7,108 nt of DNA from a virus (taxonomy: Duplodnaviria; Heunggongvirae; Uroviricota; Caudoviricetes). Each line of letters begins with the position of its first letter. The stretch's first letter is position 1. Below the pieces are notes generated by a model that was not told the origin of the DNA, ran no database searches, and saw nothing but the letters and a program-made list of their open reading frames with translations. The translations under genes and the position numbers were made by a program. The DNA lies in IMG/VR virus record IMGVR_UViG_2778261165_000002, positions 1 to 7,108 of that record; one strand, given 5' to 3'. This document shows positions 6,274-7,009 of this stretch, in pieces.

Positions 6274-6981
6274 ATGAAAACATTCGCAGAAAGACTAAAT
6301 GCAGCCATGAGCTCAGCTGGGGTATCACAATCACAGCTTGCTGACATGGTTGGAATATCTCAGCCAGCCATACAGAAGATGTCGTCCGGTAAAACAAACG
6401 GATCTCGCAAGATGGTTGAATTAGCCAATGCTTTAAAAGTGCGCCCTGAATGGCTTAGTTCTGGTATTGGTGAAATGAGGGATGGTGCACATGAAGAACC
6501 ATCCAATATCCGTGAGTCATCTTTAAAAGCTGTGGTATGGGAAGACATTAAAAGAAACGATGACGAGTTTGTTGCGTTGCCTCTTCTTAACGTTTCGCTT
6601 TCAGCTGGAAGCGGTAGCTGCGAGCTAGAGGAATCATCGGAGTTCTCTTTGGTTTTCAGAAAGCACTATCTAAAAAAGATGGGGGTATCTGAAAGATCAG
6701 CCAAGCTAGTTAGGGTTGTAGGGCAAAGCATGGAACCAACGCTTCACGATGGCGATGTTGTTGGTGTTAACACGCAAGATACCACAATCAGAGATGGTAA
6801 AACCTACGCTATTTGCCAGTCTGATTTGTTACGAGTAAAAACATTAATCGCCACCCCCACGTCGGTGATAATCAGATCAATAAATCGCGAAGAGTACCCG
6901 GATGAAGTAATGGATAGAGATGAATTTCATGAAACCGTAAGGATTATTGGCAGAGTATTCTGGTCGTCTCATAGTTGGTAA
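6274..6981 (+). CDS. cI: CI-type phage repressor (HTH N-terminal domain, LexA/S24-like autocleaving C-terminal domain), 235 aa
   Basis: HTH QSQLADMVGISQPAIQKM, Ala-Gly in LSAGSG as candidate cleavage site, catalytic Ser in GQSMEP and Lys in LRVKTL. Start moved to the ATG at 6274; the ORF-track start at 6244 is a TTG lying inside the operators. Confidence 0.9.
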   Translation: MKTFAERLNAAMSSAGVSQSQLADMVGISQPAIQKMSSGKTNGSRKMVELANALKVRPEWLSSGIGEMRDGAHEEPSNIRESSLKAVVWEDIKRNDDEFVALPLLNVSLSAGSGSCELEESSEFSLVFRKHYLKKMGVSERSAKLVRVVGQSMEPTLHDGDVVGVNTQDTTIRDGKTYAICQSDLLRVKTLIATPTSVIIRSINREEYPDEVMDRDEFHETVRIIGRVFWSSHSW

Positions 6982-6982
6982 C

Positions 6983-7009
6983 CAGTGGCCTGAAGAGACG
7001 TTTGGGTGA
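6983..7009 (+). other. Out-of-frame remnant of the lambda cI 3' end just after the repressor stop
   Basis: CAGTGGCCTGAAGAGACGTTTGGGTGA translates as QWPEETFG-stop, the C-terminus of lambda CI as I recall it. It begins 2 nt after the repressor's own TAA. Confidence 0.5.

Follow-up and report, generated by a model that had tools for sequence, protein, structure and literature searches.

The question raised by this locus is how the coding end of one phage repressor gene came to lie, out of frame, behind the stop codon of another, and what this short segment does there. The window, by which the whole analysed stretch of 7,108 nt is meant, is a 7.1-kb early-right and immunity region of a lambdoid prophage, in reversed orientation compared with the lambda map. 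Genes for a DNA methyltransferase, NinB, a DnaB-like helicase, an O-like initiator, CII and Cro are located on the minus strand. The immunity module consists of the Cro-like gene (5938..6162, minus strand, from the RefSeq annotation of an identical prophage), the operator region (6163-6273) and a gene for a CI-type repressor of 235 aa (6274..6981, plus strand, from the list of open reading frames; WP_171816575 in the identical RefSeq prophage). The other edge of the module lies at about 5938: phage phi367 is 98% identical to the window, and its match stops at 5938, the cro stop codon. Over the repressor-proximal 909 nt, the window and prophages of E. coli chicken isolates, e.g., NZ_CP148507, share 100% identity.

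Two Pfam domains were detected in the window repressor, HTH_3 (E = 7.8e-7) and Peptidase_S24 (E = 1.4e-17). The latter is complete, covering profile positions 1-116 of 116 and ending at residue 229 of 235. By alignment, the Ser/Lys dyad motifs GQSM and RVKTL correspond to GNSM and FKKL of lambda CI, respectively, and an Ala-Gly pair (LSAGSG) stands at the expected cleavage place. The window repressor has the features of the LexA/CI type and is predicted to be autocleaving. Its C-terminal end reads ...IIGRVFWSSHSW-TAA, with the stop codon at 6979-6981, and this allele (...FWSSHSW-stop) is referred to here as the B-type immunity allele.

The segment behind it, designated A, occupies positions 6983..7009 on the plus strand (CAGTGGCCTGAAGAGACGTTTGGGTGA) and translates to QWPEETFG-stop in frame 2 of the window, i.e., +1 relative to the repressor frame. 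It corresponds to the last eight codons and the stop of lambda/434-type cI genes and is non-coding here. The lambda cI gene (J02459, 37227-37253, complement) ends in ...VVGKVIASQWPEETFG-stop, with the nucleotides CAGTGGCCTGAAGAGACGTTTGGCTGA, and 26/27 of these are identical to segment A, the sole mismatch being GGC in lambda against GGG in the window. The first-pass annotation had recognized the string as the C-terminus of lambda CI and had placed it in the 27 nt following the repressor TAA. The coding string and its lambda origin were both borne out, and only the placement needs adjustment, as a single spacer base (C, 6982) separates the TAA from A.

When the lambda 27-mer was searched in the window with up to three mismatches, segment A was the single match, and no match was obtained in 200 dinucleotide-preserving shuffles of the window. 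The annotation had also described the repressor as otherwise unlike lambda CI, and this proved correct: only 59/235 residues (~25%) are identical, and the 300 nt preceding the junction show ~49% nucleotide identity to lambda in a gapped global alignment, which is the level of unrelated flanks. At one point, 6983, the identity leaps from this background to 96%. Segment A is on the same strand as the resident repressor, just behind it, and out of frame after a stop.

A mirror-image arrangement was found in lambda itself. Segment B (6949..6982, plus strand; GGCAGAGTATTCTGGTCGTCTCATAGTTGGTAAC) comprises the last 11 codons of the window repressor, its stop and one more base, and is coding here. In lambda, the cI stop is followed by 2 nt and then by 34 nt (GGCAAGGTGTTCTGGTCGGCGCATAGCTGATAAC) which are identical to window segment B at 27/34 positions and translate to GKVFWSAHS followed by two stops. 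The order of ends is thus A (coding) then B (fossil) in lambda, and B (coding) then A (fossil) in the window. Because of this swapped order, a straightforward alignment of 6900-7108 with lambda, which had been proposed as a check of the junction, pairs B and not A, with no colinear extension past 27 nt. It had further been suggested that a lack of extended identity to lambda would mark the resemblance as accidental. Read literally, such extended identity is lacking, but the 34 nt adjoining A do match lambda, in the swapped order.

B survives as a non-coding remnant directly after the cI stop in lambda and in many other phages. Chance resemblance of an eight-residue string, for which only the shortness of the match speaks, can be dismissed for practical purposes. 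Besides the near-complete nucleotide match and the result with shuffled sequences, A recurs at the same position relative to the repressor stop in hundreds of phages and lambda holds the reciprocal remnant; chance is excluded because the B match in swapped order likewise recurs in hundreds of phages. Segment A was confirmed as a genuine remnant of a lambda-type repressor gene, derived from its 3' end. It was also considered whether a small insertion or frameshift could have turned an A-type end into the B-type end in situ, as deletion of TGGTAAC would restore ...HSQWPEETFG-stop. This was ruled out by the occurrence of the W-stop end without A in PA28-like phages and in lambda-type remnants, and also by the background-level identity upstream of the junction.

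Close relatives of the window prophage show mosaic breakpoints on both sides of A. The left one is the B/A junction (6979..6983, plus strand), made up of the TAA, the spacer C and the first base of A. The right one lies at 7009/7010, where the cargo side begins (7010..7108, plus strand) with an AT-rich leader before a hypothetical 120-aa gene beyond the window. In E. coli prophages with the same repressor allele, homology to the window ends at either 6982/6983 or 7009/7010; it is lost at 6983 in H63-H70, L005 and L009, and it ends at 7010 in NZ_CP173596 (H61; L003). The same repressor allele followed by A continues into three unrelated sequences, namely the AT-rich leader, a gene for an SDH/Clp-fold protease and a DUF3024 gene. 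In other prophages with the same repressor, B is followed by different sequence and intact A is absent. No Pfam match was obtained for the downstream genes of the source prophage.

Shiga-toxin phages contribute a third gene end. One Stx2a phage encodes a third unrelated S24 repressor (933W/Sakai type), ending in EWLKSS-stop. Behind it stand the 23 terminal nt of B (B'), A and DUF3024 in this order, so that three gene ends follow one another. The continuation of the window ('tgtgatagagatcatt...') was also found after a 933W-type repressor, B' and A in 12 IMG/VR contigs. The past recombination junction at the cI 3' end that the first-pass annotation had postulated is upheld by the abrupt change in identity at 6983, the breakpoints of relatives and the reciprocal remnant in lambda.

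A junction of this kind could be read simply as the scar of one illegitimate joint, with the various combinations arising from crossovers elsewhere or from independent joints at gene ends, as in a Hendrix-type model. Breakpoints exactly at gene ends are what such a model predicts. In addition, many continuations start right after the stop of A, and each joint of that kind is itself necessarily non-homologous. Whether this reading is sufficient depends on how A is distributed and on what varies around it.

The distribution was surveyed by a pattern scan of IMG/VR, which gave at least 119 loci and which favours intact copies. Further IMG/VR scans were anchored on neighbouring sequences (B-type ends, 933W-type ends and the lambda-type B remnant) to offset this bias toward intact A. 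The IMG/VR sample is redundant, with many near-identical E. coli prophages. Among the matches listed, 257 A copies were catalogued. A is coding in three major allele groups, and non-coding copies follow B, 933W-type ends with B', or other ends, in about 15 junction classes. At more than 150 other loci, A was placed, as in the window, just behind the resident repressor and on the same strand. A is a widely shared tag and not the private scar of one phage; the earlier reading of the junction included neither the spread of this tag nor its role in crossovers.

Of 82 B-type coding ends, about 29 are followed by A, each with the QWPxExFG-stop frame retained, 33 by 'ccgataatcagaaga...', 17 by PA28-like sequence, and three are singletons. 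In its longer form, 'ccgataatcagaaga(a)gacttacgg', the second of these sequences shows 17/27 identities to A in ungapped comparison and reads SEETYG in A's frame; it may be a diverged A-like remnant. For the 933W-type ends the picture is much more uniform, 103/104 copies being followed by the 23-nt B fragment (B') and A, and then by more than 25 different continuations. The lambda-type B remnant (54 copies in IMG/VR) stands behind at least five kinds of repressor end and is followed by at least ten continuations. Upstream of it, A-type ends of two allele groups, P22-c2-like ends (...ETKMRLV-stop, tag D) and others were observed.

More complex stacks of gene ends were also present. The order B(stop)-A-B' was found in L046 and L164, C(stop)-B'-A-B together with the lambda rexA side in L224, X(stop)-A-D'-B in L296 and in Enterobacter bugandensis (L342), and A(stop)-B-A'' in L292 and L279. 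In L115 and L284, a small hydrophobic ORF is flanked by A and a partial A.

The B'+A stretch, at minimum, was present in 415/5426 complete E. coli genomes. A scan of one genome per species yielded genuine A copies across the Enterobacterales, in Pantoea, Serratia, Izhakiella, Winslowiella, Edwardsiella, Enterobacter, Pluralibacter, Scandinavium and Intestinirhabdus, and also in Aeromonas. The B-A joint 'stop + c + CAGTGG' occurs with TAA, TAG and TGA stops, and the same scan found it in Izhakiella too. About 30 matches in unrelated phyla consisted of the exact lambda sequence on short low-coverage contigs and were discarded as contamination.

When the two sides of A were considered together, extensive reassortment was evident. 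Among the matches listed, 26 left contexts and 73 right contexts (by 12 nt) were joined in 99 combinations, and at least 70 different sequences begin directly after the stop of A. The DUF3024 cargo stands behind lambda-type, B-type and 933W-type+B' repressors alike. The continuations 'tatatgtgaaatg', 'caagaagcac', 'taggaatgga' and 'ttcaacgcag' were each observed behind both lambda-type and 933W-type+B' repressors. Among the 257 A copies listed, 54 four-gamete quartets were found, an argument which presumes that identical joints were not formed repeatedly and independently.

One quartet (L010, L057, L006 and L031) was compared over 300-nt flanks. Flanks of one type shared 96-100% identity, those of different types 46-49%, and only the 27-nt A was common to all. 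Under the reading of A as a scar and nothing else, this pattern would require repeated joints identical to the base; otherwise a crossover within A is needed.

Variation within A points in the same direction. Compared with an IIGKVVKA-type allele (L021), lambda shows 60% identity on the left side of CAGTGG, and beginning with this hexamer the identity rises to 100%. The GGC variant near the 3' end of A was associated with the lambda-type B remnant on the right in 33/33 cases, behind five left-context classes; 3' variants of A thus co-segregate with the right flank whatever the left flank, which is not expected of a mere scar. L046 is a chimera whose left side is of the window type and whose right side carries the GGC variant and B remnant of the lambda type. 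Likewise, non-coding A copies carry the variant of the local coding allele, CCTGAAGAG in E. coli phages, CCTGATGAGATATTC in Salmonella-type phages and CCGGA(A/C)GAG in Erwiniaceae, which also stands against a joint that was formed once and then left alone. These population-genetic patterns indicate repeated homologous exchange within A, and the reading of A as scar alone is considered unlikely.

The reading preferred here, to which we assign a probability of roughly three in four, is that A is a fossil of a cI end, left by an immunity replacement, which has since served as a crossover patch for the re-pairing of repressors and cargo. In an ancestor with an A-type repressor, the present B-type allele, which is unrelated, would have taken the place of the resident immunity gene. 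The joint would have formed at the very end of the old gene, beside the stop codon of the new one, and of the old gene no more than the final 27 nt would remain; this leftover would have no function of its own as protein or RNA. Since lambda-type repressors have A as their coding end and many other repressors are followed by it as a leftover, A would be a stretch of perfect homology flanked by unrelated sequence. Homologous exchange inside this stretch, by phage Red/Rad52-type enzymes or host RecA, could then re-pair any repressor with any accessory cassette. Repeated rounds of replacement would produce stacked tags: A-B in lambda, B-A in the window, and a repressor's own end, a B fragment and A in 933W-type Stx phages. 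We infer the direction and order of these events, the enzymes, and the stop-codon microhomology that would have made the first joints.

With regard to the enzymes, the minimal efficient pairing segment is reported as 23-27 bp for Red-beta and 31-34 bp for RecA (PMC3945230). By these figures, the 27 bp of A lie at the upper edge of the Red-beta range and below the RecA range. The window is without recombination genes, and the source prophage encodes, by annotation, an anti-RecBCD protein and other early-left genes. For lambdoid modules, exchange through conserved short sequences at their flanks is accepted as a mechanism (PMC2327257).

The left edges of the remnants bear on how the joints arose in the first place. 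Of the junction classes of non-coding A copies, about 15 have their left edge 0-9 nt before CAGTGG and about four 25-27 nt before it, at the start of the last beta-strand (RIIGKV). Lambda's B remnant starts at the same structural spot. Among these classes, none has its left edge between 28 and 150 nt before CAGTGG. The first joint of each kind is non-homologous, yet the left edges are tightly clustered, more so than random illegitimate joints followed by drift would produce; a simple scar model leaves this clustering unexplained. A bias toward deleting longer remnants is an alternative cause of it.

At several joints, the stop codon of the incoming gene falls on a triplet that is out of frame in the resident gene, and microhomologies of 4-9 nt with stop codons are visible at several left joints, which a model of illegitimate joining alone would also accommodate. 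Examples are tgg-TAG-C|CAGTGG against A-type gc-TAG-C|CAGTGG, tgGTAGCCAGC| against gttGTAGCCAGC|, gatTTAAGGCT| against gtggTTAAGGCT|, and A...ggaTAGAGACGAAG against the D coding sequence gctgTAGAGACGAAG. These cases suggest that repressor 3' ends in rough alignment were joined with the help of microhomology. A homeologous crossover strictly in register was rejected as a model, as the codon offsets do not fit; the stop of B would align with lambda E234 and not with Q230.

A wider version of the preferred reading was also considered. Tentatively, the 23-35-nt repressor ends could form an alphabet of tags (A = QWPEETFG-stop, B = IGKVFWSxHSW-stop, D' = ETKMRLV-stop), stacked on one another and themselves the actual crossover points. 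The joints would then be homology-guided and register-constrained, lying at the start or the end of the last beta-strand of S24 and re-using out-of-frame stop triplets. This is possible, although we regard it as rather doubtful.

A is well conserved even where it is non-coding, and a selected function could be an alternative cause of this conservation. The most direct form of such a function would be translation, through a +1 frameshift at TGG-TAA-C or bypass of the stop there, so that part of the repressor would end in a lambda-like QWPEETFG tail. In most non-coding copies the QWPxExFG-stop frame has indeed stayed open, and synonymous changes account for several of their differences. However, intact frames are accounted for by exchange with coding copies, and disabling changes were found in some non-coding copies: TGG to TGA (W to stop), the radical substitutions E to K and G to W, and loss of the stop, alongside TGA to TAA or TAG changes. 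Because of such nonsense, radical and stop-loss changes, non-coding A is taken to be untranslated and without protein-level constraint. In 933W-type phages, moreover, A is preceded by two stops, one after the other and in different frames. At the window's repressor stop, neither a slippery site nor a stimulatory structure for recoding was found. In both lambda CI and the window repressor, two to three codons separate the end of the S24 profile from the starting point of A; A is thus predicted to encode only a tail beyond the S24 fold, and the domain is complete without it. Recoding is regarded as very improbable.

A second possibility is that A is kept as a cis-element, acting in processing, stability or translation coupling of the PRM transcript or as a protein binding site, with its coding potential being incidental. 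Its near-intact state in non-coding positions, in hundreds of phages and several genera of the Enterobacterales, is in keeping with this. In the DUF3024 arrangement, the stop of A adjoins the ribosome binding site of the next gene (GGGTGAGGAGGATAGATG), and PRM transcripts extend into the gene behind the repressor (PMC3564112).

Against this, there were no terminator-like sites in 6800-7108, RNA folding of 6940-7030 was no better than that of shuffled sequences (z = +0.46), and no Rfam match at E <= 1 was obtained over 6700-7108. The distance from A to the next gene ranges from 12 nt (DUF3024) to more than 200 nt (window prophage), with wholly different intervening sequence; differing continuations and distances generally rule out A as part of the start region of the downstream gene. 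Finally, 50/82 B-type repressors are without intact A. Altogether, no support was obtained for a cis-acting or recoding function of A, and the cis-element is judged improbable, if less so than recoding.

The reading of A as a fossil that became a crossover patch was compared with known systems. The closest is the lambda cI 3' end itself, which shares with the window the A sequence, the B copy and the same position in the PRM direction. The two differ in that A is translated in lambda and B in the window, the repressors being otherwise about 25% identical, and in what lies downstream, rexAB in lambda and the unrelated hypothetical 120-aa gene here.

A modular-evolution theory of lambdoid phages is said to go back to Susskind and Botstein, and Clark et al. 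2001 reportedly described boundary sequences at lambdoid module junctions. A resembles such boundary or linker sequences in being a short shared segment at a module boundary, with unrelated flanks and reassortment across it. It differs in being a fossil or living coding end and not an intergenic linker, and in that the tags A, B and D' are variably stacked.

For lambdoid module exchange, 'flanking, short and conserved sequences' have been mentioned (PMC2327257). The Rad52-like relaxed recombination described there and in PMC3945230 is comparable in that the length of A falls in the Red-beta range and that phage-prophage exchange occurs in the same hosts. The mosaics in these two papers, however, involve at least 100 bp with partly similar flanks, whereas A is a near-perfect 27 bp between unrelated flanks. 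The interval from cI to N is a mosaic hotspot with accessory and defence genes such as rexAB, bstA and hex, according to the accessible parts of PMC8585504 (citing Degnan et al. 2007) and PMC3564112. The locus is the same, with accessory genes directly behind the repressor, co-transcribed with it and variable within one immunity. In those parts, the hotspot studies describe variable genes, and neither a 27-nt tag at the left edge nor fossil repressor ends.

Within the searchable literature, which gave only the general framework, no paper contains QWPEETFG, and no description of the A tag or of lambda's own remnant was found. The locus is best filed under a known kind, the short boundary sequence or fossil joint of lambdoid mosaicism, of which it is an unusually clear example. 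What the present comparison would add is the reciprocal remnant in lambda, the stacked tags, and population evidence pointing to crossovers in a 27-bp patch.

Two explanations of mosaic phage genomes are of long standing, short conserved linkers that guide homologous exchange and random illegitimate joints filtered by selection. On the reading preferred here, this locus would show both, with tags made by non-homologous or microhomology joints and later used as 27-bp homology patches for reassortment. Stacked tags would offer a practical marker for the order of past immunity replacements, lambda included. If the wider tag alphabet should be true, the lambda cI-rexA spacer would be a readable record of an earlier immunity type, and the locus would constitute a natural, tractable test of the debate between linkers and illegitimate recombination. 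The site is small, well defined and situated in the best-studied phage, so that it is directly testable by crosses. The finding may also bear on how Shiga-toxin and other lambdoid prophages gain new immunities and new cargo behind the repressor.

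On its opposite side, the immunity module that was swapped (cro-operators-cI) is bounded at window position 5938. Phage vB_EcoP_phi367 was 98% identical to the window over positions 1 to 5938, and this identity ended exactly at the stop codon of the cro-like gene. For VT2-Sakai-like phages, the match to the window reached only position 5596, close to the cII-like gene's 3' end.

At the cI side, tag B (the 34-nt end of the window's own repressor gene) and tag A (the 27-nt fossil of a lambda/434-type cI end) together contain a 6-bp inverted repeat, with CGTCTC in B (6965-6970) and GAGACG in A (6995-7000). 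Their pairing formed the only notable stem of the predicted RNA fold; because the overall folding energy of the region was no better than that of shuffled sequences, the repeat was treated as a chance occurrence.

Directly behind B, the sequence 'ccgataatcagaaga(a)gacttacggaagtgcggagggataATGG' was observed in 33 of the 82 B-type repressor loci (IMG/VR: L005 3283-3325, L009 and 31 others). It has GAAGAGAC in common with A, is equal to it at 17 of 27 positions without gaps, and reads ..SEETYG... when translated in the frame of A. This sequence may descend from an A-like end of an unsampled repressor allele and have diverged strongly since, or its resemblance to A may have arisen by chance.

Further tags were found behind A. 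The third tag, AGACGAAG(A/C)(T/A)GCGGCTGGT(C/T)T(G/A)(A/G), encodes ETKMRLV*, the end of P22-c2-like repressors, and lies as a fossil directly behind the stop codon of A in L296, L342, L354, L363, L213 and L361. Where it adjoins, the stop of A is TAG, overlapping the gTAGAGACG of the third tag's coding form. In five IMG/VR loci (L037, L115, L284, L299, L302), a small ORF whose product is hydrophobic ('...tgagagaatatctgatagtaggcgtggttactttgctctcggttgttgcgatcgtgcttatg') lies between a full A on the left and a partial A on the right (GTGGCC...TGA), which provides the ORF's stop codon and is followed by a B remnant. The arrangement resembles the insertion of a cassette between two copies of a tag.

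Among the genome contig matches, exact lambda cI-end/rexA-side sequence was also noted on very short contigs of roughly 1x coverage (L315, L316, L319, L324, L325, L327, L330, L333, L334, L337, L339, L340, L343, L345-L347, L350, L355, L357, L358, L364, L365 and others) in assemblies of unrelated organisms, including Limosilactobacillus, Fusobacterium, Kitasatospora, Bradyrhizobium and Helicobacter. These lambda-identical contigs are almost certainly lambda or cloning-vector contamination in the public assemblies concerned.

When A is followed by a DUF3024 gene, the ribosome binding site of that gene (GGGTGAGGAGGATAGATG) adjoins the stop codon of the fossil (L004 3283-3322; L006 2529-2560), which is TAA rather than TGA in 21 copies. 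In the source prophage, just past the end of the window (L002 7028-7534), A is followed by two genes of 120 and 42 amino acids. No Pfam match was found for either; by position, both are candidates for accessory or defence genes expressed in the lysogen.
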